In this document: positions 3,340 to 59,662 of the stretch, piece after piece
How positions within the stretch are numbered: the stretch's first letter is position 1
How the letters are laid out: each line of letters opens with the position of its first letter
Program-made: the position numbers and the translations under genes
Notes under the pieces: generated by a model
Databases searched by the model: none
What the model saw: only the letters and a program-made list of their open reading frames with translations
What the model was told of the DNA's origin: nothing
Assembly: GCA_030606335.1 (NCBI GenBank)
Contig: JAUWGP010000013.1
Coordinates: 2,346 to 66,345 of the forward strand
DNA from: a candidate division WOR-3 bacterium
Lineage (GTDB): Bacteria; Hydrothermota; UBA3073
DNA: 64,000 nucleotides
Direction of reading: 5' to 3'

Positions 3340-3342
3340 TTT

Positions 3343-5229: not shown

Positions 5230-5385
5230 TTTTGATTCATTAAAGATTAAAGATATTTTTTGTAAAGAGTAGCTATTCAAATCTCTTAAAATCCCTGTAG
5301 AAATAAAAACATAAATATTTGGAGAACACAGAGAATTAATTTCATCTCTGTGACCTCTGTGGTTTATTTCATATTTATAGATAAA
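5230..5385. repeat. Partial 'Q'-type intergenic element ending in CTCTGTGACCTCTGTGGTT; shares CAAATCTCTTAAAATCCCTGTAGAAA segment with the copy at 48485-48728
   Basis: Sequence similarity read directly. Confidence 0.55.
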
Positions 5386-5396
5386 TACTCCTAATA

Positions 5397-5891
5397 TCAC
5401 CACTCACCCTCTAAAAAAGACAATTCAAATACTATACTCTGTATTCTTGAATCTATATCATTATCAAGTATCACATTATTTGTCATAAGACATATCTGTT
5501 GATTTATATTCCATATACTATCTTCAAAGGTATACTGCAATTCATCCTTTCTAATGCGTGGAAGTATTAGTAATAAAAGTACACCAACTGCACATGCAAA
5601 TGCAGGCACAGCCCACCTTACTCTCCATCTGATAAATATCCTTTCTCTCACAGGTGTTGGTTTTCTAATTCTTCCTGCATGTTTTAAAATTCTCCTCACT
5701 GTTCTTTCAGATGGTTCTTTCCTTGGAATATCATCGTAAATCGAAATTATGCCTTTAAATTCCTTTAAGTATTTCTTACAGTAAGGACAGGAGTAAAGAT
5801 GTTCTTCGAACATTCTCTTCTTTTTACCCCTCAATTCACCGTATGCATACAGCACACGGTCTTCTTCATACTCTTTACATTTCATATTCAT
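5397..5891 (-). CDS. Anti-sigma factor, zinc-finger (HxxxCxxC) type with one transmembrane segment
   Basis: HLYSCPYC motif near N-terminus; central hydrophobic helix; overlaps the upstream ECF sigma gene. Confidence 0.6.
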   Translation of the reverse strand: MNMKCKEYEEDRVLYAYGELRGKKKRMFEEHLYSCPYCKKYLKEFKGIISIYDDIPRKEPSERTVRRILKHAGRIRKPTPVRERIFIRWRVRWAVPAFACAVGVLLLLILPRIRKDELQYTFEDSIWNINQQICLMTNNVILDNDIDSRIQSIVFELSFLEGEW

Positions 5892-12961: not shown

Positions 12962-12964
12962 TTC

Positions 12965-13241
12965 AAAGATACTGTGAAAAATAATATGAAAGAATATGAA
13001 AGCAAAAATGTAGGGGTTCGATTTATCGAACCCACAATGTAAAGCAGAAATGTAGGGATTCGTTTTATCGAACCCGTAAAAGAAACAGGTCGGATACCCG
13101 TCTGCCGTCGGGCAGGAATCCGACCCCTACAAGAATCAGGGAGAGACAAGCTAAAAGTATATAACTGCTTTTAAAATTGTAGGTTATTCGTTAGCAAACG
13201 AATTAGAAGAAAATAGACAAAAGTTTTTTGACAATACTGAT
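12965..13241. repeat. Intergenic element, variant of the Q family: two copies of a tRNA-T-arm-like hairpin (AAATGTAGGGGTTCGATTTATCGAACCC) plus right end TTTTTTGACAATAC
   Basis: Left end (ATAATATGAAAGAATATGAAAGC) shared with 31395-31454; right-end motif shared with 33682-33713. Confidence 0.55.
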
Positions 13242-13261
13242 AAATTCCTGAGGAGGACAAA

Positions 13262-26942: not shown

Positions 26943-26958
26943 TATGCTCATTAATGAT

Positions 26959-27376
26959 GTCATTGCGAGGAGTCCGTCGTACTTCTTGACGGACGACGAA
27001 GCAATCCCAAGAGTCAACATAAGTGAATAAGTATTACTACATTTATATAATGACCAATAAGAGGAACACTGTACTTTATACAGGCGTTACTAATGACTTA
27101 AAAATAAGAACTTGCCAACATAAAGAGAAATTAGTTGAAGGATTTACAAAGAAATACAAAATCACCAAACTTGTCTATTACGAAGTATTTGATAACATAA
27201 AAAATGCCATCTTAAGAGAGAAACAGATTAAGGGCGGTTCAAGACAGAATAAAGTCGAGTTAATCAACAGTATGAATTCCAAATGGAAGGATTTATATGA
27301 TGAGGTATGAGATTGCCACGGGCTTTGCCCTCGCAATGACCCTCTAGGTCGGATTGCTTTGCTTCGCTCGCAATGA
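26959..27376 (+). mobile_element. GIY-YIG minigene cassette bounded by REP-like hairpin repeats in inverted orientation (GTCATTGCGAGG ... GCTCGCAATGAC)
   Basis: Repeat copies 26959-27008 and 27310-27376 flank the 95-aa ORF; cassette lies between the oppC-like and oppD-like genes. Confidence 0.5.
27023..27310 (+). CDS. GIY-YIG nuclease-family protein (free-standing, 95 aa)
   Basis: YYIYIMTNKRNTVLYTGVTNDLKIRTCQHK matches GIY-x10-YIG...R...E/H pattern; GTG start, no clear RBS. Confidence 0.7.
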   Translation: MNKYYYIYIMTNKRNTVLYTGVTNDLKIRTCQHKEKLVEGFTKKYKITKLVYYEVFDNIKNAILREKQIKGGSRQNKVELINSMNSKWKDLYDEV

Positions 27377-29406: not shown

Positions 29407-29615
29407 GAAGAATAGTATTTACCGTCGGGATATTTATACTTATATTAGCACTTATCCCTTTACCATTTTTGAGGAGGGATTCGCCAGAATTTGTAGTTGA
29501 TATCGTGGCTATAATAGTGAGCTTGGGGATCTTGGGTTTCGTTATATTAAATGTTAGAAAGCAAGTACGGACATCTAAAAAAAACAAGAAAAACAGAGAA
29601 CAAAAAGGTAAATGA
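29391..29615 (+). CDS. Small two-TM membrane protein
   Basis: 74-aa ORF overlapping neighbours; hydrophobic. Confidence 0.3.
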   Translation: MEPHIGRIVFTVGIFILILALIPLPFLRRDSPEFVVDIVAIIVSLGILGFVILNVRKQVRTSKKNKKNREQKGK

Positions 29616-30850
29616 ATATGGATATTACCCAGTTTATGACCGTTATAAGCATCCTTTCTGTAATATGCTTTGTAGGATTGCTCTTCCAGAAGCTATTGGC
29701 AATTAAGGCAAGACACCAGGGAGAACTCTGCTATTTCCAAAATTTGCAGTCATATATCCCCATTTTTAAGAAGGGCTGGAAAATAATTTGTCAGAATAGA
29801 TGGGCTTTCTGGTTAATTTTTGGAATTTTTCTGATGAGTATAGCATATCACAACGCTTCACGCTTCCTTTTTAATAAAATGCAACCGGTACCTCTCCCAT
29901 TGGAAAAGCCGACACTTTTCGGAATAATATCTACTTTTAAATTTTCTTCCTTATCAGCGATTCGTGGTTCTGCTCGTAGCATGAATGTTTTTTCGGACAT
30001 CCCGATTTTTAATCCTTTAATAATTTTAGCGATTTTAATTATGGTCCGACCATTTAAGCGACTTTTAAATAGGGTATCTGATTCGAGTCTAAACTCCTCT
30101 AAGGACTTATTACAGAAGATGTTGTGGCCTACAGTAACTGTTGCCGGGATACTTCTTATCTTTCATACTCTTCAACTGCTGTACAGTTTAAGATTTGTTC
30201 AACAGTTTTATAGATTCTGGAACCCTCCTGCTTTTTCCATTGCCAGCATTGTCGTTACTATTCCTGGTTTTTATTTAGCCTGCATTGTAGTTTCATTGCT
30301 GCAAGGGGCTATTTTGACTGCCTTCAAAGAGGCTCGAGATAAAAGAAAAGTAGAGAAATCTTTGGTGCTTTCTGGTGCTGTAAGGCATTTCAAGAACCTA
30401 TTTTTCTTTAATCTCTTGCTCTTTGCTATCTCTTATTTTCCTTACATTATGGCTGTCTTTCAAAAAAATCTATTTCGTTCAACACTTTTTTCTTATTATA
30501 GTCCTGCGGTCACTATCACATTTCTTTTCGCAACTTATCTGATAGTTGGTAGAGATTACGATTTTAAGGACGCTCTCAAAGAAAATTTTCTCCTGTGGCG
30601 AAGGAACTTCCTCGAGATCATTGTTTTTATCTTTATTGGTAGTGTTCTCCTATTGATTCCTCACATTTTGTCTTGCTCAGGGTGTCATATTTATTGGTAT
30701 CCCATCACATTAATCAGAGCAATTACCACAGGTATAAGGGTCTTTGCCGGTCTCTGGATTGCGGCGACTCTTATGCTTTTCTTGTTAAAAATTACCGAAA
30801 AGCAATCAGAGAGATTAGTTAGCAATGACAAGACTTCGCTTTTTTTCTAA
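29612..30850 (+). CDS. Polytopic membrane protein of unknown function
   Basis: 412 aa, roughly 8-10 hydrophobic helices, translationally coupled to the ABC genes. Confidence 0.45.
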   Translation: MNMDITQFMTVISILSVICFVGLLFQKLLAIKARHQGELCYFQNLQSYIPIFKKGWKIICQNRWAFWLIFGIFLMSIAYHNASRFLFNKMQPVPLPLEKPTLFGIISTFKFSSLSAIRGSARSMNVFSDIPIFNPLIILAILIMVRPFKRLLNRVSDSSLNSSKDLLQKMLWPTVTVAGILLIFHTLQLLYSLRFVQQFYRFWNPPAFSIASIVVTIPGFYLACIVVSLLQGAILTAFKEARDKRKVEKSLVLSGAVRHFKNLFFFNLLLFAISYFPYIMAVFQKNLFRSTLFSYYSPAVTITFLFATYLIVGRDYDFKDALKENFLLWRRNFLEIIVFIFIGSVLLLIPHILSCSGCHIYWYPITLIRAITTGIRVFAGLWIAATLMLFLLKITEKQSERLVSNDKTSLFF

Positions 30851-30873
30851 AAACCATCGTTAGACGAAACATA

Positions 30874-31389
30874 ATGAAGAAAGCTGTAAGAATATTACCT
30901 TACGATAGCAAAGCACCTGAAATATATGATGAGATAGAACAATTTATTTGCAATGTAATTCCCTATCAGGTTGAAGTTGAACATATAGGGAGCACAGCAG
31001 TTGTAGGATTAGGTGGAAAAGGAATCATTGATATTTTGATAATAACAAACCGGGAATATATGCTAAAAGTAGTCGAACTTTTAGAATCTAAGGGATATAA
31101 ACATAATCCTCAAGCTGGCACCATTCCAGAAAGGCTTTTTGTCTCAGGACCATACAGGTATAAAGAAAGGGAATTACACATACATATCCATATAACATTT
31201 TCGGGAAGTAAAGAGCATAAATATAAGTTGCTCTTTCGGGATTATCTTAGACGACATGCAGAAGAAGCTAAGACTTATTTTGAGCTCAAAAAACAGTGGA
31301 GTTTGGAAGCTGGTTCAGATGGTTCTAAATATACAGAACTTAAAGCATCGTATATTAACGAGATATTAGAGAAGGCAAGAAGAGGGTAG
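30874..31389 (+). CDS. GrpB-family (nucleotidyltransferase-like) protein
   Basis: VEHIGSTAVVGLGGKGIIDILI motif. Confidence 0.55.
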   Translation: MKKAVRILPYDSKAPEIYDEIEQFICNVIPYQVEVEHIGSTAVVGLGGKGIIDILIITNREYMLKVVELLESKGYKHNPQAGTIPERLFVSGPYRYKERELHIHIHITFSGSKEHKYKLLFRDYLRRHAEEAKTYFELKKQWSLEAGSDGSKYTELKASYINEILEKARRG

Positions 31390-31454
31390 TGACAAATAGA
31401 ATATGAAAGAATATGAAAGCAAAAATGTAGGGGTTCGATTTATCGAACCCACAA
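31384..31454. repeat. Short Q-family variant (GGGTAGTGACAAATAGAATATGAAAGAATATGAAAGC plus tRNA-T-arm-like hairpin); overlaps the GrpB stop codon
   Basis: 33-mer GGGTAGTGACAAATAGAATATGAAAGAATATGA also occurs at 32388. Confidence 0.6.
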
Positions 31455-31510
31455 GGTAAATGATTTAAGCCAGAAGGAGTATAAACAAGGATGAGGAGGA
31501 CAAGCTATCT

Positions 31511-32380
31511 ATGCAGATAACAGGTATAGGAATCAATGCACATCCCGACCGCATCGATGGGGAGGTCGAGAGGTTAGAAGATGAACTAAAAGACTTTCAA
31601 GAAATAGGCTATGACTATGTGGAGATTCCTGTGGATGCAGTCGATGTCATATATTGTGGGGAATTGGATCGTCATCGTATGGATGATTTAAAAGCCATCT
31701 TGGGCAGGTTTGCCCTGAAGTATACTGTACATGCTCCTCGAGTCCTTAACCTGAGGGATGTCAAAGAGATAGAGCTACAGAAAAAGCTTTTTAAGTCGTG
31801 TATCTTTTTTAGCTCAGAAATCGGAGCGAACATCTTCGTCTACCACTATGGGCAAAAGACAAAAGAGAAGCAGATCGAGGAGATACTATACCAGTCTATG
31901 CTGGAAATGGCTGATTTTGCTGTCAATTACGGAGTCCAGATCTGCATGGAGAATATCGAGATTGATACAGTTTCTAACGTAATAAAGTTCATAAAGCGAG
32001 TAGCAAAAAATAATGTTGGGATGACCTTTGATTTTGGACATGCTTATCTTGCGTCTAAGTACTTCAGCTTCGACTTCCTAGGCTCGGTCGAGATGGCCGG
32101 GCCATATGTTAAGCACATACACGTGACTGATAACTTTGGACGCTATGAGGAGACAAGACTAATCAGCTATGAACAGTATAAGTTAAAACGATATCCAGAC
32201 TTGCTCTTGCTTGGACGAGGTGATCTGCACCTGCCACCTGGGTGGGGCAAGGTACCACTTGATGCTGCTTTTAATCTCCTGAACGATTATAGAGGGATCT
32301 TCATGCTTGAATACGACTACCGTAGGCATAAGTCTTATAGCCGTGAAATAATAGAGACTGCAAAGCAATACATTAAGTAA
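31511..32380 (+). CDS. Xylose-isomerase-like TIM-barrel sugar (phosphate) isomerase/epimerase
   Basis: FDFGHAYLA and HIHVTDN metal-ligand-like motifs; 289 aa. Confidence 0.55.
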   Translation: MQITGIGINAHPDRIDGEVERLEDELKDFQEIGYDYVEIPVDAVDVIYCGELDRHRMDDLKAILGRFALKYTVHAPRVLNLRDVKEIELQKKLFKSCIFFSSEIGANIFVYHYGQKTKEKQIEEILYQSMLEMADFAVNYGVQICMENIEIDTVSNVIKFIKRVAKNNVGMTFDFGHAYLASKYFSFDFLGSVEMAGPYVKHIHVTDNFGRYEETRLISYEQYKLKRYPDLLLLGRGDLHLPPGWGKVPLDAAFNLLNDYRGIFMLEYDYRRHKSYSREIIETAKQYIK

Positions 32381-32387
32381 CGCTACG

Positions 32388-32540
32388 GGTAGTGACAAAT
32401 AGAATATGAAAGAATATGACAAACCACAGAGGACACGGAGGTAATATTAAATATAAAAAATTAAATATTAAAATTACAAATCAAAATTCAAAAATTCTCT
32501 GAGCTCTCTGTGCCCTCTGTGGTTAAGTTTTTGACGATAC
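32388..32540. repeat. Q-type palindromic intergenic element (IR AAACCACAGAGGACACGGAG ... CTCTGTGCCCTCTGTGGTT, then TTTTTGACGATAC)
   Basis: IR-L 32421-32440, IR-R 32506-32524; fills the whole gap between the isomerase stop and the GH130 RBS. Confidence 0.8.
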
Positions 32541-32564
32541 TACCCCACATTGCAGGAGGTAAAT

Positions 32565-33551
32565 ATGAGTTTAGAGGTAAGACGTTATACTGGTAATCCT
32601 CTTTTAACACCCAGAGGAGATGACTGGGAATCTGTAGCTGTCTTCAATTGCGCTGCTGCATATAAAGACAATCAAATACACATTCTCTATCGTGCTGTTG
32701 GCGATTATTTTCACTATGCTTCAAGCCTGGGGCATGCTGTCTTCGATAAGAACCTCAATTTAGTCGAGCGCTCCGACAAGCCCTGTTTTGTGCCTGACCT
32801 GAAGCTCTGGGAGCCATCGATTGAAGATCCAAGATTCACTGAGATTGATCAGGAGCTCTATATGACCTATGTGGTCACAACAACACCAGCCCCTCCAGGT
32901 GCTGTTCGAAGGAGACTTGGTATACCTAAACCGATGCAGGCATATACACGTATAGCACTTGCAGTAGTAATGGATTTCAATAATTTCAATAGGTTAGGAG
33001 TCATCACACCCTACAAGGCGAAAGAAAGAGCTGCAGTGCTCTTTCCAGAAAAGATTGATGGTAAATATGCAGTATTGCATAGGCCATCTAATTGGATAGG
33101 TCCCGACTATGGCACTGACCGCCCAAGCATCTGGTTTGCATATCTTAGCAGCTTAGATGGAGGGATGTTCGGGCATAAGCTAATTATGGTGCCAAAGGAA
33201 AAGTGGGAATCACATAAAATAGGCCCAGGTCCATCACCTATAAAGACAGAAAGTGGATGGCTTCTTATCTACCATGGAGTTGGTAAGGATTATGTATATA
33301 GGGCAGGAGCAGCCCTTTTAGATTTAGAGGAGCCTTGGAAAGTGATCGCACGTACACATGAGCCAATTCTGGAACCTGAGGAGGATTACGAAAGAGCAGG
33401 TGATGTTCCTAATGTTGTATTTCCAGAGGGAGCAGTAGTAATAAGCAATGAGCTTTTACTCTTTTATGGTGCAGCTGATAAAGTCTGCTGTGTTGCCAGA
33501 GTATCCTTGAAGGAACTTATCAATCATCTAATCACAATTGCAGGAAGATGA
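32565..33551 (+). CDS. GH130-family glycoside phosphorylase
   Basis: N-terminal NPLLTPR...W motif, EDPRFTEI; AGGAGG RBS 4 nt before ATG 32565. Confidence 0.8.
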   Translation: MSLEVRRYTGNPLLTPRGDDWESVAVFNCAAAYKDNQIHILYRAVGDYFHYASSLGHAVFDKNLNLVERSDKPCFVPDLKLWEPSIEDPRFTEIDQELYMTYVVTTTPAPPGAVRRRLGIPKPMQAYTRIALAVVMDFNNFNRLGVITPYKAKERAAVLFPEKIDGKYAVLHRPSNWIGPDYGTDRPSIWFAYLSSLDGGMFGHKLIMVPKEKWESHKIGPGPSPIKTESGWLLIYHGVGKDYVYRAGAALLDLEEPWKVIARTHEPILEPEEDYERAGDVPNVVFPEGAVVISNELLLFYGAADKVCCVARVSLKELINHLITIAGR

Positions 33552-33681
33552 TCGATAAAAGAAAGAACAGGCAAGATAAGAGGTCACAGAATGGGGAGAT
33601 GAGAAAAGAGATAAGAGATGAGGGAGTAGGGATAGATGATTTCTCGCTCTTCCCTCTTCCCTCCTCGCTCCCCGCAAATTG

Positions 33682-33713
33682 CTCTCTTTCTGTGGTTAGA
33701 TTTTTGACAATAC
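33682..33713. repeat. Solo right end of Q-type element (CTCTCTTTCTGTGGTTAGATTTTTGACAATAC)
   Basis: Matches right ends at 32506-32536, 48707-48735 and 62089-62118. Confidence 0.5.
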
Positions 33714-33735
33714 AGATAGAAAGAAGGGAGGATAT

Positions 33736-34719
33736 ATGGAAATAAAAGTTGATGAAGCCAGGAACATTCCAGGCTGGGCAATCGGTCCTTTTACAAAATA
33801 TAAAGGAAATCCAGTTTTAGCGCCATCTGAAGAAGGCTGGGATGCAGGAGGTTCTGGTAACGGGGTTTTTAATGGAGGAGTGATAGTAGAAAATGACACC
33901 TTCTACTATCTATACAGGGGATGTAGAGAAATAAAATCTAAGCCCGGATATCTATGTAAAATTGGGTTAGCCTTGAGCGATGATGGGTGTTGTTTTCGTA
34001 AATATGAAAACAATCCATTATGGGGAAAAGATGATAAATACAGTTACGAAGATGTACAAATAATTAAATGCGAGGGTACATACTACCTATTTTGTAATAG
34101 GTGGGATTGGGAGTGTCGTGAGCCTGCTATTAATGGCATGTGGCTCGCTATTTCTGGGGATCTAATTAACTGGAAGGAATATGGTATAATTTTCCCACAT
34201 GCCAAAAAGATACATCGAAATGGTGCTATCCTGCAAAACCCTGACAATGAACCTGTAAAAGTTAATGAGAAGTTCATTATGTATTTGAACGACGGTCTTA
34301 TTGCGTATTCTTTTGACCTAATTCACTGGGAATCAAAGGAGATGCCTCGTATTCCAGGGGGAGAATGTTGTGTTGCCATAGCTGATCATTCAACACAAGA
34401 GCCCAAAAATATTGTATTGTTTACCGGTGGAGGAGGAGAAGGCACGTCATGGGAGGGAGAACATCGCTATGCAATAGGCGAAGTTTTGTTTTCCAGAGAA
34501 GCTCCAGAAAAACCAATTTCAGTAATGAAGAAACCTATTCTTTACGCTGAGGAAAAGTATCCATGGGAGATGGGCAAAAGTGCTGTAGAACCCGGGAAAG
34601 AAGTTGCACACCCTGATGTCATTTTCTTCGATGCACTGACGAGGTATAAAGATAAGTGGTGGATGTACTACGGAGCTTGTGATTTTTATACCTGTCTCGC
34701 AACCTCTCCAGTTAGATGA
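33736..34719 (+). CDS. GH130-like beta-propeller glycosidase-family protein
   Basis: NPVLAPS...W N-terminal motif and YEDVQIIKCEGTYYLF at the position of the GH130 EDPR motif. Confidence 0.5.
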   Translation: MEIKVDEARNIPGWAIGPFTKYKGNPVLAPSEEGWDAGGSGNGVFNGGVIVENDTFYYLYRGCREIKSKPGYLCKIGLALSDDGCCFRKYENNPLWGKDDKYSYEDVQIIKCEGTYYLFCNRWDWECREPAINGMWLAISGDLINWKEYGIIFPHAKKIHRNGAILQNPDNEPVKVNEKFIMYLNDGLIAYSFDLIHWESKEMPRIPGGECCVAIADHSTQEPKNIVLFTGGGGEGTSWEGEHRYAIGEVLFSREAPEKPISVMKKPILYAEEKYPWEMGKSAVEPGKEVAHPDVIFFDALTRYKDKWWMYYGACDFYTCLATSPVR

Positions 34720-35747
34720 TAAAGTATGAAATGAGGGCTTCTAAAATGAATAGCAATGAAATATTGATAAGTGACCCAAACCCAAAACTTCAGTGGGTCA
34801 ATTTATTGCTTACCTACAGATGCACTGCAGAGTGCTCCCATTGCTTCACAAGTTCTTCGACACATAAAGATGCCACAATGAAGCTCTCTGAGGTACAGGA
34901 ATACCTCGAAAAGGCAAAGAAGGTTGGAGCGAGTCGGCTCTGGATTTTCGGAGGAGAACCTTTCTTCTACTTTGACCTTCTCCTGGGTACCGTCAAATTA
35001 GCAAAGCAGTTGGGCTTTCATGTATTAGTGACCTCAAATGCATTTTGGGCGATAACCGAAGAGTCTGCCTTGAGAAGATTATGTCTACTGAAAGAAGTGG
35101 GCTTGGACTCTATTGCGTTCAGTGCCGATCCATTTCACTGGGAATATGTTCCTCTGGAGTATGTATGCAATGCAGTAAAGGCTGCAGAGAAGCTCGGTAT
35201 TTTAGATGGTATATGGAACGCTGCGATAGAGGAGGATCATGTACAGAAACTCAACAGGGAGATAATAGCCAGGATGTCGATGTACAAAATTGATGCCGGA
35301 GTGGTCACGTTCAATGGAACTGCAGCAGAGGTGCTCGCTGAGCGGGTCAAGAAGCAGCCCTGGATTGACTACGATGAGTGTAATATCGGAAAAGAAGCCT
35401 GGATTGACTACAACAAATGTAAGATTGGAAGGGGATTTCAGTATCTGGGATCGGTAGACATTGATCCATATGGCTATGTTCAGAGATGTTCAGGCATATC
35501 TATTGGCAATGCAAAGGAAAGGAAGCTGTCAGAGATTATCAGAACATATGACATCGAGGATCATCCCATTATGAAAGTATTAAATGAAGAAGGACCTGTA
35601 GGTCTGGCAAAAATGGCAATGAAATATGGTTTTAGACCCACAGAATATGCTGATGGCTGCCATTTATGTTACGAGGCAAGAAAAGTGCTTCTGAAGCATT
35701 ATCCACAGTACTTGGCACCGGCTATTTGGTACGAAAGGATAAAATGA
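34716..35747 (+). CDS. Radical SAM enzyme with Cys-rich C-terminal (SPASM/twitch-like) region
   Basis: CTAECSHC (CX3CX2C), GGEPF glycine motif, further Cys in C-terminal third; internal tandem repeat WIDYDECNIGK/WIDYNKCKIGR. Confidence 0.6.
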   Translation: MIKYEMRASKMNSNEILISDPNPKLQWVNLLLTYRCTAECSHCFTSSSTHKDATMKLSEVQEYLEKAKKVGASRLWIFGGEPFFYFDLLLGTVKLAKQLGFHVLVTSNAFWAITEESALRRLCLLKEVGLDSIAFSADPFHWEYVPLEYVCNAVKAAEKLGILDGIWNAAIEEDHVQKLNREIIARMSMYKIDAGVVTFNGTAAEVLAERVKKQPWIDYDECNIGKEAWIDYNKCKIGRGFQYLGSVDIDPYGYVQRCSGISIGNAKERKLSEIIRTYDIEDHPIMKVLNEEGPVGLAKMAMKYGFRPTEYADGCHLCYEARKVLLKHYPQYLAPAIWYERIK

Positions 35748-35806
35748 TAAAAGTTAATAAGAAAATTAATGTAACCATCCTATCTTTTCTTTCCTTACAG
35801 TTTTTC

Positions 35807-35835
35807 TTGACGCTTAAGGATTTAGCCTTTATAAT
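35807..35835 (+). promoter_or_regulatory. Sigma70-type promoter (TTGACG-17-TATAAT)
   Basis: Hexamers with 17-nt spacer ~30 nt upstream of the IUNH RBS. Confidence 0.45.
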
Positions 35836-35863
35836 CCAGCTTATAATAAGGAGGTGATAGGAG

Positions 35864-36775
35864 ATGAAAAAAGCAGGTCTTGTAGCGAGGGTTACTGGAA
35901 GGACTAGCAACTCAAAGAAGATCATTCTTGATACAGACATAGGAGATGATATTGATGATGCATTCGCATTGGCTCTGGCACTTAAATCGCCAGAACTTGA
36001 AATAGTTGGCATATGTATAGAGAATACTGTTGACGGAAGAGAAAAAATTGCGTTAAGATTAATCCATATTGCAGGTAGAGATGATATACCGGTAGCAAAG
36101 GGGCTTGCAGTACCAGGATTAAAAGGCAAACATCCTGCTAATCAGGTACCTTGGTCGATTGATTATGATTTAACAAAACCATACAAGCTAAATGCCGTAG
36201 ATTTCATAATTTCAAAAGCAAAAGAATCACCAGGCGAAATTACTCTTGTAACTATTGGACCGCTAACTAATGTCGCAGCAGCTCTCAGAAAGGAACCGGC
36301 GATAAAAGATATGATCAAAGAAATTGCTATGATGGGTGGTCCTTTTTATGTAGAGTATGGCATAAGAATCAAACAAAAACCAGGTTCAGATTACAATCTT
36401 TGGTGCGATCCAGAAGCAGCTAAGTCTATTTTTACTTCTGGTATTCCAATAACTTCGGTAGGATTACAGGTTACGACGCATCTTAAGTTATGGAAAGAAA
36501 ACAGAGATAAAATAAAGAATGCAAATAAACCTTTAACCAATGCACTTTGGAAACTTTACAAACTATGGGTGTTTGAAGTACCAACACTTTATGATCCGTT
36601 AGCTATAGCAGTAACTATAGATAAGACATTCGTTGACAGGAGTTCAGTGCATGTGGAAGTAGACGATAACGGAGATACACGAGTCATAGAAGAGTTATCT
36701 CCAAATGCAAGTGTATGTACATTTGTAGACAAAGATAGGTTCATAAATTTCTTTATGAATCGTATTTTGGCTTAG
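35864..36775 (+). CDS. Inosine-uridine-preferring nucleoside hydrolase family
   Basis: N-terminal ILDTDIGDDIDDAFALALAL aspartate cluster. Confidence 0.8.
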   Translation: MKKAGLVARVTGRTSNSKKIILDTDIGDDIDDAFALALALKSPELEIVGICIENTVDGREKIALRLIHIAGRDDIPVAKGLAVPGLKGKHPANQVPWSIDYDLTKPYKLNAVDFIISKAKESPGEITLVTIGPLTNVAAALRKEPAIKDMIKEIAMMGGPFYVEYGIRIKQKPGSDYNLWCDPEAAKSIFTSGIPITSVGLQVTTHLKLWKENRDKIKNANKPLTNALWKLYKLWVFEVPTLYDPLAIAVTIDKTFVDRSSVHVEVDDNGDTRVIEELSPNASVCTFVDKDRFINFFMNRILA

Positions 36776-36897
36776 CTTTAAGAGAGAAATTGAAAAGTTC
36801 GCTAGCAAACATTATCCAATGCTCAGGAGCATAAATGGTAGTTGTTAGTATAAAGAATCTTTAAAACAAATATAAGGATATGTTTTTATAGACGAAA

Positions 36898-37638
36898 ATG
36901 GAAAAGATGAAGATAGAAGAATTGATACATTTTCTGGAGACAGGTGACGATACAGCTAGCTGGAATGCAGTACATACCCTTATGACAACAGCCCCAAAAA
37001 TAGATAGAAAGCTTCTACAAGAGCAGATTAACAGGGTCTTAGATATCGCAAGCTCGAAAGCTGGCTTTAGAAAAGTCTACGCCGTTATGGTTTTGGGAAA
37101 GCTCTTTCAGTATGCAGTTTCTAAGGAAAAGATACTGGATACGCTCCTTCTTGCTGCACGGGACCCTGATGAAAACGTAAGAAGAGCGGCAGTCTTTGCT
37201 TTGAGTGACTGTATTTCAGATGAGATAAGGGATAAAATCTACAGTGTGTTTGAGGCTCTTTTGGAAGATGAAGCTAAAACTGTGAGGTACGGTGCCTTAG
37301 AAATCCTGACAGAGGTCTTGCCATACAAAATTGGTAATAAAGCCTTTGATAAGATATTAGGATTTCTGGAGGCTGATGAGTCATGGTTCAGATGGAGGGC
37401 AGTGTTAGCTATAAACAAAGCATATCCCGAATTAGATAGTAGCGAAAAACAAAAGGCTGTGAGTATTCTTATAGAATTGATCGAGGACGAGGATGTCTTT
37501 GTAAAGGTGAGGGCTTATGAAGCGCTCCTGAATATTAAAGATTTGGAGAAGCGGGACTTTCCAGAGGTCGATGAAGCGTTAAGGAAGGAATCAGATTTTG
37601 TCCGACAATGGGTTCTTTATAACTTTGAACAGAAATAG
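36898..37638 (+). CDS. HEAT/PBS-lyase-type repeat protein
   Basis: Repeated ...DE.VRRAAVFAL... helical repeat units. Confidence 0.45.
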   Translation: MEKMKIEELIHFLETGDDTASWNAVHTLMTTAPKIDRKLLQEQINRVLDIASSKAGFRKVYAVMVLGKLFQYAVSKEKILDTLLLAARDPDENVRRAAVFALSDCISDEIRDKIYSVFEALLEDEAKTVRYGALEILTEVLPYKIGNKAFDKILGFLEADESWFRWRAVLAINKAYPELDSSEKQKAVSILIELIEDEDVFVKVRAYEALLNIKDLEKRDFPEVDEALRKESDFVRQWVLYNFEQK

Positions 37639-37727
37639 ACATTTAAAGTGTTAAAGACATTTGGACAAAGCCATAAAAAGAAATACTCAAGAAGACAATA
37701 GGAAAAAAATAAAAGGGGGAAGAAACC

Positions 37728-38957
37728 ATGAAAGTTACAATGGTAATTCCATCGTATTGGACAAGAGAAAGTAATGTTGGTTGGAAGAAAGGGGACGCTA
37801 TCTATGACCACCCTACTCCTTTAGATAGCGAAAGCACATTGCTTAGGGCTATACAGAGTATAGACATACTGAAAGACAAAGATTTTCATTTGGTGATAAT
37901 CGCTGTTGCCACTGCAGAAGACATTGAAACCAAAGTTGAAAAGAAGGTTGCCAGTATTATCAAATCAGTTTCAACTATTATAGGAGTAGAATTATTCCTA
38001 TTCGGACCTTCCCATCTTAGAAAGATACATAATCTATTTACTAACAAGGGCAAAAATGAGTATATTAACCTTCTCAAACTCCGAGGATATTCTAACATCC
38101 GAAATCTATGCACCTTCATCCCTCATATCTTTGATTCAGAAGTAGCGCTTCTTATTGATGATGATGAGGTATTTGAAGACCCAGAATTCATATCTAAAGC
38201 AAAAGGATTTATCGGTAAAAATGTCGGAGGAAAAACAGTCAATGCAGTAGCAGGATATTACCTCCAACCAGACGGAGATTACCACATTAAAGGACCTTTT
38301 TGTCCCTGGATGAAATATTGGGATAAATGCGAGAAGATGAATGAAGCATTTGATAAGGTCATTGGAACCGAACCAAGGTTAAAAGAGACACCTTTTGTAT
38401 TTGGTGGGAATATGGTTATTCATCGAGATCTTTTTACTTTTGTGCCTTTTGATCCCAATGTTCCAAGAGGAGAGGATATGGACTTTTTGATAAATGCAAA
38501 GATGTTTAGTTTTACCTTCTTTCTGGATAACCAACTTTCTATAAAGCACCTTCCACCACAAAGTATACACCCCACCTGGATGCAGTTGAGAGAAGATATC
38601 TACCGATTTATCTATGAACGAGCTAAGATCGAGCACCAAAAAGAGACAAAAGGAATGATAAAGGTTTATCCAGAAGATTTTGACCCTTATCCAGGGGTTT
38701 TTTTTAAAAGTGATCTTGAGGATAAGATTGAAAAATCATGCGAACTGTTATCTGAAGAGTATCTTGCCCAGGGCGACAAACGAGGTAGTGAGGAGGTATT
38801 AAAGAATATTACGCTCTCCAAAACCGATGCTGTACCGAAATTCAACCCTTTTCAAGGGGTATGCAAGCTGCAAAAACGCTGGAGGGATTTGATGCTGTTT
38901 ACAAGCCAAGAAGATATTCGTTCGCAGATAAGAGATACTATCGGTAGTGTCAAATAG
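37728..38957 (+). CDS. Hypothetical protein, possibly GT-A-fold glycosyltransferase-like (VIPSY...IDDDE)
   Basis: Motif resemblance only; 409 aa; the last codons overlap the left end of a Q element. Confidence 0.3.
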   Translation: MKVTMVIPSYWTRESNVGWKKGDAIYDHPTPLDSESTLLRAIQSIDILKDKDFHLVIIAVATAEDIETKVEKKVASIIKSVSTIIGVELFLFGPSHLRKIHNLFTNKGKNEYINLLKLRGYSNIRNLCTFIPHIFDSEVALLIDDDEVFEDPEFISKAKGFIGKNVGGKTVNAVAGYYLQPDGDYHIKGPFCPWMKYWDKCEKMNEAFDKVIGTEPRLKETPFVFGGNMVIHRDLFTFVPFDPNVPRGEDMDFLINAKMFSFTFFLDNQLSIKHLPPQSIHPTWMQLREDIYRFIYERAKIEHQKETKGMIKVYPEDFDPYPGVFFKSDLEDKIEKSCELLSEEYLAQGDKRGSEEVLKNITLSKTDAVPKFNPFQGVCKLQKRWRDLMLFTSQEDIRSQIRDTIGSVK

Positions 38958-39143
38958 AATATGAAAAAAGACTAAAATTAACCACAGAGGACACGGAGGT
39001 AATATTAAATATCAAAAATTAAATATTAAAATGACAAATCAAAATTCAAAAATGCTCTGAGCCCTCTGCGGTTCCCCTGTTAAATAAAGTATAGGGAGTG
39101 ATTACTTATACTTAATCTTGTAACTATTTAACAGGGTGAATCT
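38947..39143. repeat. Q-type element fused to a P palindrome (IR-L AACCACAGAGGACACGGAG 38979-38997; CTCTGAGCCCTCTGCGGTT 39055-39073; P arm CCCCTGTTAAATA ... TATTTAACAGGGTGAATCT)
   Basis: Direct comparison with 32388-32540, 48485-48728 and 5143-5229. Confidence 0.75.
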
Positions 39144-39294
39144 TTGGTTTAAAAAATGGGAAAAAGATTGGTCTTACCCGTGAGATTTCGTATCCTTTCC
39201 ATACATATCATGTTCTGTGGAATGGATCTTGAGATTAATAAGAGGTCATATAGTGGAGGCATAAGACTCTTTTGCAAGTCCTTAATTAATAAAA

Positions 39295-39382
39295 TTCTCT
39301 GTGGTTCCCCTGTTAAATAAAGTACCAGGAGTGATTACTTGTACTCAATTTTGCAACTATTTAACAGGGTGAATCTGTGGTA
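39295..39382. repeat. P palindromic element (CTCTGTGGTTCCCCTGTTAAATA ... TATTTAACAGGGTGAATCTGTGG)
   Basis: Near-identical to 39064-39143 and to the reverse complement of 5143-5229. Confidence 0.75.
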
Positions 39383-39425
39383 TAGTTTTTTTGAAAATAC
39401 CAGAAATTATTGAGGGAGGAAGAAA

Positions 39426-45779: not shown

Positions 45780-48482
45780 ATGGCGAGTTTATCAGTCCCT
45801 GCCCTTGCATCTGCTAAAGAGCCCGTTGATTATGTAGACCCATTTATCGGAACTGCAGCAAACCTGGGAAACACTTTTCCGGGTCCGTGCATCCCCTTCG
45901 GGATGATACAGTTAAGCCCCGATGTAACCATTCACAATTGCTCTGGATACGATTATGCCAGACGCACCATCAGAGGGTTTAGTTGTACTCATTTGAGCGG
46001 AACGGGTTGCAGTGATTATGGCAATATCCTTTTTATGCCAATGGTTGGAGAAATTAAAATTCTGCCCGGCTCGAGGGATAAACCTGATGAAGGTTATCGA
46101 TCGAGATTTGACAAAAAAGATGAAAAAGCATTTCCCGGATATTATTCTGTTACGCTTAAAGATTATAATGTAAAGACTGAATTGACTGCTACCAAACGTG
46201 CTGGATTTTTCAAGTTTACCTTCCAGGAGAGTAAAGATGCACACATCTTAGTAGATCTCTTCCATAGAATAGGCGGAGAGGCTATTAATGGATATGTAAA
46301 AATTGTAGATAGTCACACCATTGAAGGTTATAGTTATTGCAATTCGACTGGTAGAGGGTGGTGCGGAGGTTCTGACTATACTGTCTACTTCGTCGCCAAA
46401 TTTAACAAACCATTTAATGGGTATGGAACCGGGAAGGTCTGTGAACCAGTAGACATTCCGGAGAGTGCCTTGATTCCAGCTGGTGCCAAAGAAGGAAAGC
46501 ATGGTCTCAAGGGTGAGTATTTTAATAACCGAAATCTTCAGGGTAAGCCGACATTGATCCGAGTTGACAAGCAGATTAATTTTCAATGGGGAGGTTCACC
46601 GGATAATAGTATAAATTCAGATGATTTCTCTGTTCGCTGGACCGGCTGGTTGGTCCCTCCTTTTTCTGGCACCTATCAGTTAGCTGTTACCAGCGATGAC
46701 GGAGTCCGCCTTTTCATTGATGGGAAACTCATCATCGACAAATGGGTAGACAGACCAATCACGACAGATATAGCACCCGTGACACTGAAGGCGGGACATC
46801 GATATGATATTCGGATAGAGTACTATAAACATGGGGGAAAAGCTGTCGCCCATTTGAAATGGGTTTTTCCTGATACTTATAAGACAATTCGGAAAGGTTC
46901 GCAGGAAGAATCCGGGAAGCATATTGTTGCCTTTGTTGACTATACTACTGCAAAAAACGAAACTATCTTAATGAAGGTAGGGATTTCATTCGTTAGTATA
47001 GAGGGAGCAATAAAAAACCTTGAATCCGAAATCCCGAACTGGGACTTTGATAAGGTAATAAACGAGGCAAAAAAATCCTGGAACAAGAGGTTAAACAAGA
47101 TCAAGGTTGAAGGGGGTACGGATAAGCAAAAAGTGATTTTTTACACTGCCCTTTATCATACATTGATACATCCCAACATTTTTATTGATGTAGATGGAAG
47201 ATATTATGGGATGGACCATAAAATTCATTCTACAGCGGATACTCATTATGCCATCTTTTCTGGATGGGATATATTCCGAGCAGAAATGCCTTTGTTAACA
47301 TTGATAGAGCCAGTGGTGGATAATGAGATAATCCGATCCTTGATAGCCAAGTATAAACAGGGTGGCTGGCTGCCGATATGGGAGTTTGCAAATAGTTATT
47401 CCAACTGCATGATTGGTGACCCGGCTGTTCCTGTAATTGTTGATGCCTATATGAAGGGTCTCAGAGACTTTGATGTTGAGGAGACCTATAAAGCGATGAG
47501 GAAGAGTGCTATGGAATTGCCTCAACCAAGCCATTTATTCAAGGGTCGGCGCGGTTTGGAGGAGTACAAGAAATTTGGCTATATTCCTGCTGACACACCC
47601 GAGATTGATGCAACTGTTTCCGTAACTTTAGAGTATGCCTATCCCGATTGCTGCCTGGCTCAGATGGCGAGAGACTTGGGCAAGGAAGAAGATTACGAGT
47701 TATTTATAAAAAGGGCAGGTAATTACGCAAATGTTTTTGACCATTCAGCGGGATTCATGCGACCGAGGAATAAGGATGGGTCATGGGTAACGCCGTTTAA
47801 CCCCATTGTTTGGGAACACGGCTTTTGCGAAAGCAATTCATGGCAACAGACCTGGTTTGTGCTACATGATGTACAAGGGCTGCTCGACCTTATGGGAAGA
47901 GAATATTTCATTGAAAAGCTGGATACCTTATTCAAGGAAGGTCTCTCCGATAATTTAGGAGGTAGGTATGGAGAGAATCTATATTATTATCATGGAAATG
48001 AGCCTGACCAACATGTTGCTTATTTTTATAATTATGCCGGGGTACCATGGAAAACCCAAAAATGGGTTAGGGAGATAATAGAAAGAGCATATAAATTGGG
48101 TCCCGATGGAATATGTGGGAATGATGATTGTGGCCAAACATCAGCGTGGTACATATTCAGTGCAATGGGTTTTTATCCAGTCTGCCCTGGACAGAATATA
48201 TATGTAATAGGGAGTCCAATATTTGATAAAGTTACGATCGAATTAAACACGCCATACAAAAAAGGCACATTTGTAATAGATGCAATTAATGTATCAAGAG
48301 AGAATAAATATATTCAGTCTGTAACTTTAAATAACAAGGTATTGGACAAATCCTGGATCACGCATTCTGACATAGTCAGTGGAGGGGTTTTGACCTTTGT
48401 AATGGGACCAGAGCCAAACAAGGAATGGGGGAGCTCGCCTGAAGAAGTTCCACCTTCTATGTCCAAAACGGGAGAAAAATGA
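45780..48482 (+). CDS. GH92 alpha-1,2-mannosidase-family enzyme with inserted PA14 domain; 5' end probably frameshifted (signal peptide in frame 0 upstream of annotated ATG)
   Basis: DYVDPFIGTAANLGNTFPGPCIPFGMIQLSPD N-terminal GH92 signature; PA14-like block FSGTYQLAVTSDDGVRLFIDG...GHRYDIRIEYY; KKELILLLGGIMASLSVPALASA readable upstream in frame. Confidence 0.8.
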   Translation: MASLSVPALASAKEPVDYVDPFIGTAANLGNTFPGPCIPFGMIQLSPDVTIHNCSGYDYARRTIRGFSCTHLSGTGCSDYGNILFMPMVGEIKILPGSRDKPDEGYRSRFDKKDEKAFPGYYSVTLKDYNVKTELTATKRAGFFKFTFQESKDAHILVDLFHRIGGEAINGYVKIVDSHTIEGYSYCNSTGRGWCGGSDYTVYFVAKFNKPFNGYGTGKVCEPVDIPESALIPAGAKEGKHGLKGEYFNNRNLQGKPTLIRVDKQINFQWGGSPDNSINSDDFSVRWTGWLVPPFSGTYQLAVTSDDGVRLFIDGKLIIDKWVDRPITTDIAPVTLKAGHRYDIRIEYYKHGGKAVAHLKWVFPDTYKTIRKGSQEESGKHIVAFVDYTTAKNETILMKVGISFVSIEGAIKNLESEIPNWDFDKVINEAKKSWNKRLNKIKVEGGTDKQKVIFYTALYHTLIHPNIFIDVDGRYYGMDHKIHSTADTHYAIFSGWDIFRAEMPLLTLIEPVVDNEIIRSLIAKYKQGGWLPIWEFANSYSNCMIGDPAVPVIVDAYMKGLRDFDVEETYKAMRKSAMELPQPSHLFKGRRGLEEYKKFGYIPADTPEIDATVSVTLEYAYPDCCLAQMARDLGKEEDYELFIKRAGNYANVFDHSAGFMRPRNKDGSWVTPFNPIVWEHGFCESNSWQQTWFVLHDVQGLLDLMGREYFIEKLDTLFKEGLSDNLGGRYGENLYYYHGNEPDQHVAYFYNYAGVPWKTQKWVREIIERAYKLGPDGICGNDDCGQTSAWYIFSAMGFYPVCPGQNIYVIGSPIFDKVTIELNTPYKKGTFVIDAINVSRENKYIQSVTLNNKVLDKSWITHSDIVSGGVLTFVMGPEPNKEWGSSPEEVPPSMSKTGEK

Positions 48483-48484
48483 AC

Positions 48485-48728
48485 AATAATATGAAAGAAT
48501 ATGACAAACCACAGAGGACACGGAGATAATATTAAATATCATGTTTATAAGAAATTGAATTAACAGGGATCGAAAGAGAACTAAAGGGGTAAAAAATAAA
48601 TAAAAAAATCTCTTTCAAATCTCTTTAAATCCCTGTTGAAAAAAAAAGAATAAATTAACAGAGGAAGGTGTAAAAATCTCCTGCGATTCTTTATTACTCT
48701 ATAATTCTCTGTGTTCTCTGTGGTTAGA
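48485..48728. repeat. Q-type palindromic intergenic element, long version (IR-L 48507-48526, IR-R 48707-48725)
   Basis: IRs AAACCACAGAGGACACGGAG / CTCTGTGTTCTCTGTGGTT; spans from 3 nt after the GH92 stop to ~35 nt before the next start. Confidence 0.8.
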
Positions 48729-48765
48729 TTAATCGCACTACCCGTTGAATTGATGAAAGGAACTT

Positions 48766-49992
48766 ATGAAGGCAAAAAATTTGTTCTGGGTTCTGCTTAC
48801 TGGCATATGTCTGTTGATATTGACGACAGCTATAGCGGCGACTCCTCAGAAAACAGGCAAGTGGACTGAAAATTTAGAAGAACTCGCTTTTGTCCGAAAG
48901 ACACAACGTCTTCAAGAGAGAATGGAAGAGGTTAAAGAGAAAGCTGTAAAAGTAAAAGCGTCTGAAAGACTTATTCAGGTGATAGAAGAAGCAGAAAGTG
49001 AACTGGGCAATATGGTCACACAACCCATTTATAAAAGGCAAAAACCTCCTGAATTTGAAGGAATATTAAGGGAAGTGACTTCAACAATTAAGAGAGAAAA
49101 GCTCCCAGGTGAGACTGTTCAGGAGCTGATCAATACAGTTTTAAATTTGGAATTATTTGCTATTCTCAAGTTTGCAAAAGGGAATTTTATTTTAAGGTCT
49201 TTCGTTCTATACGATGAAGAACTCATCAAGGATGCAAAAAGCCAGATTAGGTTGGAATTACCACCAGGGTGGATGGCGAAGCTTGATTCCGAAGAGGATG
49301 AATTTAAAGAATTCCTTATAAACCCTCCTCCATTATGTGCCTTTGGTAATTATGTAGTAGAAGTAAAGGCAACAATATACTGGTCCTGGGGAGAAACAGA
49401 GATTTCTCGGAATTTTCAGTGGCAAAATGCTTCTCTGATTGATTTAAAATTGATAGGTGTTTTTGATAATATCGAAAATAGGGGAATGGATATCGTCTAT
49501 GCACTGGAAAAGGATATTTTAAGAGGGATCGATTTTTCTGATGTTTACAAGGATAAGGAAGGTGTTACTGTAGGTTGGCACGATGTAGAAAAGGAGAGTA
49601 TATTCAGCAGAGGAGGAGCTCATTTTGTGGATCTCAAGAAGGAATTTGAATCTCTTAATTTCCCAACAGAGAATACTATTTCTTATGCCTGCACTTATGT
49701 TCACTCGGATGAGACAATGGATGTGCGGTTTGATTTGGGCAGTGATGACGGCTGTGTGTTCTGGCTTAATGGTCAGGAAATCCACCGCCATTGTGAGCCC
49801 AGAGGATTAAGGATAGGAGAAGATATAATTTTTGCCCAGCTCAAGGAGGGTTGGAATCAAGTTTTGCTTAAAATTGGTCAGGTAGGTGGTGGGTGGGAAT
49901 TCTGTCTCCAAATATTCAGTCTTGAAGGTAAACCCATTGAAGAACTTCGTTGTTCAACCGAGAAAATACTATTTCCTCCAACGGATGAATAA
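48766..49992 (+). CDS. Secreted protein with C-terminal PA14-like beta-sandwich domain
   Basis: Signal peptide; MDVRFDLGSDDGCVFWLNGQEI...WNQVLLKIGQVGGGWEF resembles the PA14 SDDG / L.G core. Confidence 0.45.
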   Translation: MKAKNLFWVLLTGICLLILTTAIAATPQKTGKWTENLEELAFVRKTQRLQERMEEVKEKAVKVKASERLIQVIEEAESELGNMVTQPIYKRQKPPEFEGILREVTSTIKREKLPGETVQELINTVLNLELFAILKFAKGNFILRSFVLYDEELIKDAKSQIRLELPPGWMAKLDSEEDEFKEFLINPPPLCAFGNYVVEVKATIYWSWGETEISRNFQWQNASLIDLKLIGVFDNIENRGMDIVYALEKDILRGIDFSDVYKDKEGVTVGWHDVEKESIFSRGGAHFVDLKKEFESLNFPTENTISYACTYVHSDETMDVRFDLGSDDGCVFWLNGQEIHRHCEPRGLRIGEDIIFAQLKEGWNQVLLKIGQVGGGWEFCLQIFSLEGKPIEELRCSTEKILFPPTDE

Positions 49993-55860: not shown

Positions 55861-55875
55861 TAAAGGTGCTATTGG

Positions 55876-55926
55876 AACCTGAGGGGGCTGGGTTTTGGAA
55901 GAGTTCTTTTAATAACTCAGCCCCCA
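55876..55926 (+). terminator. Terminator-like hairpin (GGGGGCTG ... CAGCCCCC) after the LVIVD gene; no U-tract on this strand
   Basis: 8-bp GC stem; A-run follows on plus strand. Confidence 0.3.
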
Positions 55927-55998
55927 CTAAAAAATAATGGGAATTGACCTTTGTTCTCTATAAAACCCTAAAACGTGAATTCCCATAAAGGAGGTAAT

Positions 55999-57390: not shown

Positions 57391-57478
57391 ATTAACTCGA
57401 ATAGCATCAGATAGAAGCGAAGACACTTCAACCTGCAGGGACAGGTCTTCAGACCTATTCGATTAAAGGGGGTATTAA

Positions 57479-58648: not shown

Positions 58649-58690
58649 ACCACTGATTTCAAAAATTACATAAACGAAAGAGAGGTGGAA

Positions 58691-59575: not shown

Positions 59576-59662
59576 AGATATGAAATGTGCATCCTATCCT
59601 CATCGATTGGGTGTGATTATTTTTTACAGTTACACTTTATAAATGATAAGGAAAGGAGGGAG

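Follow-up and report, generated by a model that had tools for sequence, protein, structure and literature searches.

The stretch of DNA considered here (the window) comprises 64,000 nucleotides of contig JAUWGP010000013.1 from a candidate division WOR-3 bacterium. Its GC content is 33-43%, and beyond approximately 10 kb its genes lie nearly all on the plus strand. They code for glycoside hydrolases of families GH5, GH130 and GH92, for enzymes that modify sugars and for proteins carrying T9SS sorting tails. Among named relatives, those of candidate division WOR-3 and Candidatus Stahlbacteria come closest to the RnfA encoded in the window (88% identity). Eight of about 45 intergenic junctions of the window carry related palindromic repeats, which a first-pass annotation had called Q elements, and these repeats are the subject of this work. 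The focal copy separates an AP_endonuc_2 gene (31511-32380) from a GH130 gene starting at 32565 and is built as follows (TIR, terminal inverted repeat; Q arms, the two halves of an inverted repeat; T-box, the right TIR).

32380-32387, plus strand: left copy of the target-site duplication, 8 bp, decayed (ACGCTACG), matching the single ACACTATG of the empty site in the related locus L145 at 6 of 8 positions; it takes in the last base of the TAA stop of gene 31511-32380
32388-32541, plus strand: complete focal copy, 154 bp; the orthologous junction is empty in L145
32388-32402, plus strand: left TIR (GGTAGTGACAAATAG)
32403-32421, plus strand: AATATGAAAG tandem
32422-32440, plus strand: left Q arm
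32441-32505, plus strand: AT-rich core
32506-32524, plus strand: right Q arm
32528-32540 plus base 32541, plus strand: right TIR (T-box)
32542-32559, plus strand: right copy of the duplication (ACCCCACA, 32542-32549), spacer TTGCA and GGAGG (32555-32559), the latter being the Shine-Dalgarno (SD) sequence of the GH130 gene

That these repeats form a family is evident from their frequency. The 11-mer AACCACAGAGG with at most one mismatch is found 13 times in the window versus 0.88 expected from shuffles, and TTTTTGACAATAC with at most two mismatches 14 times versus 3.98 expected. Repeat finding and self-BLAST link the regions 12954-13075, 31371-31460, 32374-32541, 38929-39090, 48488-48742, 61909-62125, 5344-5381 and 33677-33714, giving eight copies in 64 kb. 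The copies are 154-460 bp long and contain no long open reading frame (ORF), whereas one copy in a relative (L142) reaches 613 bp and does include an ORF. All window copies are located between co-directional genes, start 0-10 nt past a stop codon or overlap it, and end 21-25 nt before the next start codon. Their predicted folds are stronger than those of shuffled controls (z = -3.4 to -6.1); in the focal copy the arms 32422-32440 and 32506-32524 pair with each other (-41.3 kcal/mol, z = -3.4). Much of the first-pass annotation is thereby borne out: the repeats in the listed intergenic regions are real and related, they lie between co-directional genes in the gap from stop to start codon, their inverted Q arms are predicted to pair in a stem, and the coordinates given for the focal copy (32388-32540) were exact to within one base. 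Other extents had to be redrawn. The copy placed at 38947 continues to 39401, with its right end at 39388-39401, and neither of the two copies called partial was delimited correctly: 33682-33713 is part of approximately 33567-33714, and 5230-5385 belongs to a minus strand copy at 5126-5383 whose right end is complete.

Reading all window copies showed that the common denominator of the family is the outer ends and not the Q arms. The left TIR, GGTAGTGTCAAATAG, is 15 nt long, imperfect and followed by AATATGAAAG(AATATGA). The right TIR, TTTTTGACAATAC[Y], is likewise 15 nt long, its fuller context being (GGTTAG)ATTTTTGACAATAC[Y]; in short form the termini read GGTAGTGTCAAA... In the consensus, GGTAGTGTCAAATAG and the reverse complement of the right end, GGTATTGTCAAAAAT, match at 12 of 15 positions, and a left-end query finds the T-boxes on the opposite strand. 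As the left end is mirrored by the T-box, the conserved box which had been proposed as an operator upstream of each ribosome-binding site is the right terminal inverted repeat.

Comparison with related sequences provides the evidence for insertion. A metagenome scan with the junction of the left end and the Q arm as a query returned 23 contigs, none of them identical to the window and all with the same composite type of element. In L145 the same AP_endonuc_2 and GH130 genes adjoin (the GH130 product is 88% identical to that of the window), and the stop codon and the ATG are 22 nt apart at an empty site (TAAcactatgttgtAGGAGGtgaacATG), compared with 184 nt at the filled junction of the window. 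The flanks of the focal copy, ACGCTACG and ACCCCACA, are decayed copies of the single ACACTATG of L145. Another relative, L136, is about 82-83% identical to window 54357-63995 and differs from it at two junctions in opposite directions: the 36-nt junction 58649-58684 is empty in the window and holds a copy of about 390 bp in L136, whereas the copy at 61913-62125 is without counterpart there. Three orthologous junctions are therefore occupied in just one of the two genomes compared. In L149, which shares 93-97% nucleotide identity with the window, the site of the 5126-5383 copy is flanked identically and has the same right boundary (...ATAC, then AAAATTAATAAAAAGGGGG), but the interior is a different composite.

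A script comparing the bases immediately outside both ends found direct repeats of 8-9 bp around ten copies in the relatives. Eight of these are perfect (GGGTTAAA, TCACAATAG, TAAATCAA, GGGATTTA, GAGTTTAA, GAATTACCA, ACACAGCA and TCCTGGTTT) and two have one mismatch (TATTGCnTT and CGArATTT); an eleventh, CGCAAATG, was read directly in L136. Tandem copies in L132 and L149 represent a second insertion into the same 8 bp beside a resident right end. Taken together, duplications and empty orthologous sites mean that the DNA of the element was inserted. Miniature inverted-repeat transposable elements, or MITEs, are recognised as sequences shorter than 500 bp with TIRs of 4-30 bp, flanked by direct repeats that decay with age and accompanied by many partial copies (PMC10969869). 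The elements studied here are short and have no transposase gene, possess TIRs and duplications, and are dispersed with presence/absence differences between genomes. We are therefore confident, if short of certain, that they represent a non-autonomous DNA transposon, namely a MITE of a WOR-3/Stahlbacteria-like lineage, anchored to the SD sequence. The family is new and ordinary in kind. In its interpretation the first-pass annotation was right to compare the arrangement with ERIC, BOX and MITE-type elements, and of the three functions that it offered purely selfish DNA is the best supported one. It was mistaken in having the element replace the spacer, given that insertion occurred into a short stop-to-SD spacer, and in the link to glycan genes, and its operator module is not supported.

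The position of the right end is unusually precise. We aligned 22 independent sites on the sequence that follows the terminal ...ATAC. The first position holds T or C; the duplication takes up positions 2-9, where no base is conserved; positions 10-14 are rich in purines and in A; and positions 15-19 are G, G, A, G and G in 19, 20, 16, 20 and 18 sites, respectively. The T-box is followed by GGAGG at an offset of 14 in 14 of 18 sites scored by script, or 17 of 21 if unscored sites read by eye are included, the offset being made up of one base, the 8-bp duplication and 5 nt. The distance from the T-box to ATG varies (21-25 nt at the scored sites, 30 nt at one site read by eye), so it is the SD sequence and not the start codon that serves as the anchor. 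At the other end, the position of the upstream stop codon ranges from 30 nt ahead of the left end to 12 nt within it (-30 to +12). As this offset varies and the one to the SD sequence is fixed, insertion is anchored on the SD sequence, either by target choice or by selection for spacing. The empty sites show that the SD sequence was present before insertion.

The right ends at the 22 sites face the downstream gene with GGAGG or GGA at the fixed offset (16-20 of 22 at each position), and not a single left end adjoins an SD sequence with a start codon. Where ancestral spacers are 30-40 nt long, the element is still found at exactly offset 14, and a young copy of L122 inserted between convergent genes has GGA at positions 15-17. 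The latter two observations favour target choice over the survival of harmless insertions. We thus lean towards directional insertion by a target choice measured from the SD sequence, as the likelier account of the spacing. The alternative is that only copies with exact spacing survive, a U-rich right end being needed there for translation of the downstream gene; we regard this as unlikely, though worth keeping in mind. No SD-anchored MITE was found described in the literature searched.

If the SD sequence is read in this way, the machinery involved would cut 5 and 13 bp upstream of GGAGG in one orientation only, which would make the element a natural transposon specific to operon junctions. 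Each reading frame of the left end, GGTAGTGTCAAATAGAATATGA, meets a stop codon (TAG, TAG and TGA) inside 22 nt, an arrangement only mildly improbable in AT-rich DNA, and the upstream gene ends on a stop supplied by the element in three of eight cases, two of them being window genes 30874-31389 and 37728-38957. An upstream gene clipped by insertion would therefore still be terminated and the downstream ribosome-binding site would stay intact, and together these properties would make the element tolerable inside operons. There it is plausibly co-transcribed, and the RNA would fold into long hairpins.

The remaining copies of the window, together with one unoccupied site, are listed below in order of position.

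5126-5383, minus strand: copy with T-box 5127-5139, P hairpin 5143-5229, small Q hairpin 5330-5365 and a degenerate left end; co-oriented with genes 5397-5891 and 4534-5103, both on the minus strand
12968-13238, plus strand: copy with a variant left end (GATACTGTGAAAAATAATATGAAAG), without Q arms, with T-box 13225-13237; repeat families D12 and D13
12999-13033 and 13041-13075, plus strand: GTAGGGG... hairpins inside the preceding copy
about 13090-13135, minus strand: GTAG-headed hairpin inside the same copy
31385-31454, plus strand: left-end fragment made up of the left TIR, the AATATGAAAG tandem and a single G hairpin (31416-31450), without a right end; the TAG stop of the GrpB gene 30874-31389 falls within the TIR
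33567-33714, plus strand: 5'-truncated copy (left boundary approximate) with a purine-rich/pyrimidine-rich hairpin core of the type seen in L135, L136 and L139, and T-box 33701-33713; GGAGG lies 13 nt past the T-box
38943-39401, plus strand: long composite copy with left TIR 38943-38957, Q hairpin 38980-39073, P hairpins 39064-39151 and 39297-39384, and T-box 39388-39400; repeat families D6 and D9; the left TIR provides the TAG stop of gene 37728-38957
48483-48742, plus strand: copy with degenerate left and right ends (the right one ATTAATCGCACTAC) and Q arms 48507-48525 and 48707-48725 on either side of an internal ACAGGGAT...ATCCCTGT hairpin; folding energy -74.3 kcal/mol (z = -6.1)
58649-58684, plus strand: unoccupied target site; its L136 counterpart is filled by the copy of about 390 bp with duplication CGCAAATG
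61913-62125, plus strand: 5'-truncated copy, left TIR lost, with Q arms 61928-61946 and 62090-62108 and a T-box variant at 62112-62124

To call the interior a variable AT-rich core, as the first-pass annotation did, is too mild: it is a mosaic of several unrelated hairpin modules, namely Q arms, GTAG-headed G hairpins (GTAGGGGTTCGATTTATCGAACCC), P hairpins and purine-rich hairpins. Nor do all copies share the Q ends: those at 12968-13238 and 31385-31454 have GTAGGGGTTCGATTTATCGAACCC hairpins in place of Q arms. The P type (CCCCTGTTAAATAAAG...CTATTTAACAGGG) occurs in copies 38943-39401 and 5126-5383. MITE interiors are themselves hit by nested insertions of hairpins of approximately 19-40 nt. 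Such small hairpins, e.g., CCTGCCTGCGGTAGGCAGG and CATTCACCCCGTTAGAT...ATCTAACGGGGCAGG, are seen in L141 as compared to L132 and in L122, L125, L129, L138 and L140; L141 and L132 are one locus, and the element stretch compared differs only by the 19-nt hairpin CCTGCCTGCGGTAGGCAGG.

Downstream of the copy at 12968-13238, a zinc alcohol dehydrogenase gene has an apparent ATT start at 13259-13261, 5 nt past GGAGG (ggaggacaaaATTaaagctgct...). The ORF list contains only a later GTG start for this gene, by which the conserved N-terminus is lost.

As to the enzyme that moved these elements, a DDE transposase acting in trans would cut with an 8-bp stagger. With GGTAGTG on the left and GGTATTG on the right, the ends conform to GGnnnTG, and IS6/IS26 elements have GGnnnTG ends and generate 8-bp duplications (PMC6807381). 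An IS6/IS26- or IS1-type source of the transposase is possible on this basis, both groups being alike with the MITE in their GGnnnTG ends and the duplication length being the one recorded for IS6/IS26; the likeness consists of end motif and duplication length. Duplications of IS1 elements measure 8-9 bp. IS257 and IS6100 have ends of the form GGTTCTGTTGCAAAGT, similar to GGTATTGTCAAAAAT once a gap of 2 nt is introduced. To our knowledge, neither IS6/IS26 nor IS1 targets ribosome-binding sites. In the loci examined no transposase gene was located between such ends at a distance of 0.7-3 kb, and a scan of viral contigs found neither MITE end there. An insertion sequence with an rve_3/HTH_23 transposase was noticed in a Stahlbacteria relative (L154, 13166-14152); its ends are of the GGACATCGTTTAGTT type, different from those of the MITE, so it was rejected as a partner.

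Several points weigh against an SD-anchored MITE. In the window itself the duplications are decayed (e.g., 6/8 and 4/8 matches to the empty site) or the left ends are truncated, and all clean duplications come from metagenomic relatives. Interiors are so heterogeneous that the family is defined chiefly by its ends, and the L142 copy with its ORF implies that not every copy is strictly miniature and non-coding. About 370 kb of related sequence contain no autonomous element with these ends. L124 and L128 have the left flank and the whole element in common and diverge 5 nt past the right end, which may reflect recombination at the element or a chimeric short contig. Finally, target choice and selection for exact spacing are inseparable on present sequence data.

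The strongest competing explanation is a cis-regulatory RNA encoded by the host, i.e., an mRNA stabiliser, a processing site or a translational-coupling hairpin, whose position is explained by selection. The elements are always co-oriented with their operon and so would necessarily be co-transcribed, they fold better than shuffled controls, their spacing to the SD sequence is exact, and co-transcribed MITEs of Neisseria and Yersinia are processed by RNase III or RNase E (PMC10969869). Against this stand the duplications and empty orthologous sites, which show insertion, the expression of the same junctions in close relatives that lack the element, and interiors that are interchangeable between strains. 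There is no Rfam match either: the window gave no hit at gathering thresholds, eight further loci, from relatives or from other phyla, yielded only a tRNA, and permissive scanning of 48400-48800 returned only a chance miRNA match. The 11 outer arm pairs are invariant and so give no covariation evidence either way. We consider this explanation improbable as an account of the origin of the elements, and secondary exaptation as a regulatory RNA possible. A still smaller probability is given to TTTTTGACAATAC being an operator or a -35 element delivered to the downstream gene. Its TTGACA after a T-run is reminiscent of the good sigma-70 promoters of the window (family D7) and its distance from the gene start is fixed, yet 16-18 nt downstream there is the SD sequence (RGGAGG) instead of a -10 hexamer, no promoter-scan hit begins at a T-box, the box mirrors the left end and it is found at unrelated genes, rplK included. 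The operator-bearing module suggested by the first-pass annotation is set aside on the same grounds.

It is just as doubtful that we deal with REP elements or their BIME clusters moved by a RAYT tyrosine transposase. REPs are palindromes of 21-65 nt. The mosaic of several short palindromes is similar to BIMEs, the nested G hairpins begin with GTAG, which in work by Nunvar from 2010 is said to be the head of REPs, and the Q hairpins of other phyla (see below) lack duplications. The reading may apply to the nested hairpins. The outer unit, however, has inverted ends and duplications of 8-9 bp, and REPs have neither (PMC3184786); no RAYT gene was seen, although no systematic search for one was made. 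We attach hardly any weight to integron-like attC sites or an assembly artefact. The elements do resemble attC sites in being imperfect palindromes between co-directional ORFs, and GTTAGAT at the right arm fits GTTRRRY; but site-specific recombination leaves no target-site duplication, there is no RYYYAAC partner on the left, and only 8 of about 45 junctions are occupied. As for an artefact, the Logan contig L001 does break within the element, but the copies differ by 2-35%, their flanks are unique and they recur in independent JGI, NCBI and Logan assemblies, which also removes the concern that they were assembly duplications. We therefore retain the SD-anchored MITE as our explanation.

The GTAG-headed hairpins (12999-13033, 13041-13075, 31416-31450 and, on the minus strand, approximately 13090-13135) are REP-like, carry an antisense T-run and score as intrinsic terminators in the antisense direction only. 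The intrinsic-terminator scan flagged the G hairpin solely on the antisense strand, the scan being blind to hairpins with long loops. Read in reverse orientation the left end is CCTCTGTGGTTTTTCATATTC, a sequence that looks terminator-like.

The Q arm motif is not limited to this genome, contrary to the description of the elements as genome-specific. Besides the arm 32422-32440 and the other Q arms of the window, it is found in genome loci L002-L121 and viral contigs L160-L279. The exact 19-mer AACCACAGAGGACAC[AG]GAG is present in at least 120 species-representative genomes, compared to about 9 matches expected by chance in 596 Gb. The carriers belong to Acidobacteriota, Planctomycetota, Thermodesulfobacteriota, Chloroflexota, Verrucomicrobiota, Proteobacteria, Bacteroidota, Chlamydiota, Cyanobacteria and others; among the matches listed, the GC content of the locus ranges from 33 to 73%. 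Cultured isolates with the motif include Gemmatirosa (on megaplasmids), Bacteroides and Pseudoalteromonas, with Gemmatirosa kalamazoonensis and Bacteroides finegoldii among the carriers. An inverted arm is present within 330 nt in 70 of 118 unique matches listed, forming an element with a median length of 92 nt. Each arm consists of 2-4 tandem 9-nt CACAGAGnn units; the hairpins are of the form AACCACAGAGGACACAGAG-nnCACAGAG, with an A-rich left and a T-rich right flank. Target duplications are essentially absent from these cross-phylum hairpins among the matches listed, and no recurrent gene was found beside them, only common families such as ABC ATPases.

The same 19-mer occurs in at least 120 IMG/VR contigs, several times per contig. 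Most of these occurrences are single arms located at a gene's 5' end, often after an ATGA start/stop overlap, and in 38 of 100 cases a long ORF reads the motif as TTEDTE, compared with 12 and 8 for the other frames. Literature searches with the nucleotide strings of the motif and with the encoded peptide strings returned only primers and noise; a Bacteroides fragilis paper found in this way merely uses a primer that contains the motif. Conservation of the arm motif to the base across phyla and phages is left unexplained by our tests and merits follow-up.

The elements also mark places where gene order differs. In L142 a copy flanked by a perfect TCCTGGTTT duplication separates nusG from rplK, so the family is not confined to glycan genes as had been thought. 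Within this copy, a gene at 289-597 on the minus strand codes for a GxxExxY protein (TIGR04256, E = 6e-36); it is co-oriented with the operon and is not a transposase gene. When window 29612-38957 is compared with L145, the genes for GrpB (30874-31389) and a nucleoside hydrolase (35864-36775) are found only in the window, and a second GH130-like gene with a T-box is located upstream of AP_endonuc_2 in L145 and downstream of GH130 in the window. The breakpoints between the two are marked by MITE ends or remnants. Given this difference in gene order and the remnants at the junctions, the repeats may shuffle operon content in an uncultured phylum.

Other repeats were noted in the window. At 3195-3341 three tandem copies of a 49-nt unit (..TGTCATTGCGAGCGACTGAAAGGAGCGTGGCAATCTC..) follow one another, and an inverted relative is found 23 kb away (3149-3193 versus 26957-27006). 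The adjacent paralogues 53476-55860 (coding for an LVIVD-repeat protein with a T9SS tail) and 55975-57390 share a 286-nt stretch with 78% identity; the gene 55975-57390 is not present in the syntenic relative L136.

An ordinary MITE suffices to explain why the intergenic spacers of this operon look alike. If target choice is responsible for the exact and oriented placement, which holds for 20 of 22 independent sites, it would be a mode of site selection that we did not find described for MITEs, and it could provide a tool for polar-neutral insertion at gene starts. More tentatively, and with the odds somewhat against it, the two lines of observation can be joined: the element would be mobilised by something that reads the SD sequence in DNA, and its arms would belong to a hairpin or leader motif rich in SD-like sequence that is identical across more than ten phyla and phages. 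If true, this would imply an undescribed and very widely shared function or spreading mechanism.

Among the known systems, the closest described analogue in layout, as far as the published summaries go, is Chunjie, a MITE found in Geobacter uraniireducens Rf4 (Chen et al. 2008), which is 178-235 bp long, has 21-bp TIRs and 9-bp direct repeats and is found inside operons (PMC3184786, PMC10969869). According to these summaries both are A+T-rich, non-coding elements of approximately 180-235 bp with TIRs, 8-9 bp direct repeats, stable hairpins, intergenic location within operons and many partial copies. They differ in the length of the TIR (21 nt in Chunjie, 15 nt here) and in the mosaic of hairpin modules that makes up the interior here; no sequence relationship is evident, as judged without alignment, and the summaries mention neither a fixed 14-nt offset to the SD sequence nor a single orientation. 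Correia (CREE) and ERIC elements are likewise MITEs located at gene starts or between the genes of an operon, are co-transcribed and fold via their inverted repeats, with documented effects through RNase III or RNase E (PMC10969869). They duplicate TA (PMC3184786), in contrast to the 8-9 bp of varied sequence duplicated here, which places our elements outside the ERIC and Correia families; Correia also carries promoters and an IHF site, and no promoter geometry is seen in the elements of the window. The BIMEs and REP clusters of enterobacteria and the very small dispersed repeats of cyanobacteria, reportedly described by Elhai in 2008, are alike in being mosaics of short palindromes in intergenic spacers and in having tiny hairpins of about 19-40 nt lodged inside other repeats, of which the hairpin that distinguishes L141 from L132 is an example here. 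REP and BIME elements differ in lacking the inverted ends plus duplication which the outer unit carries here.

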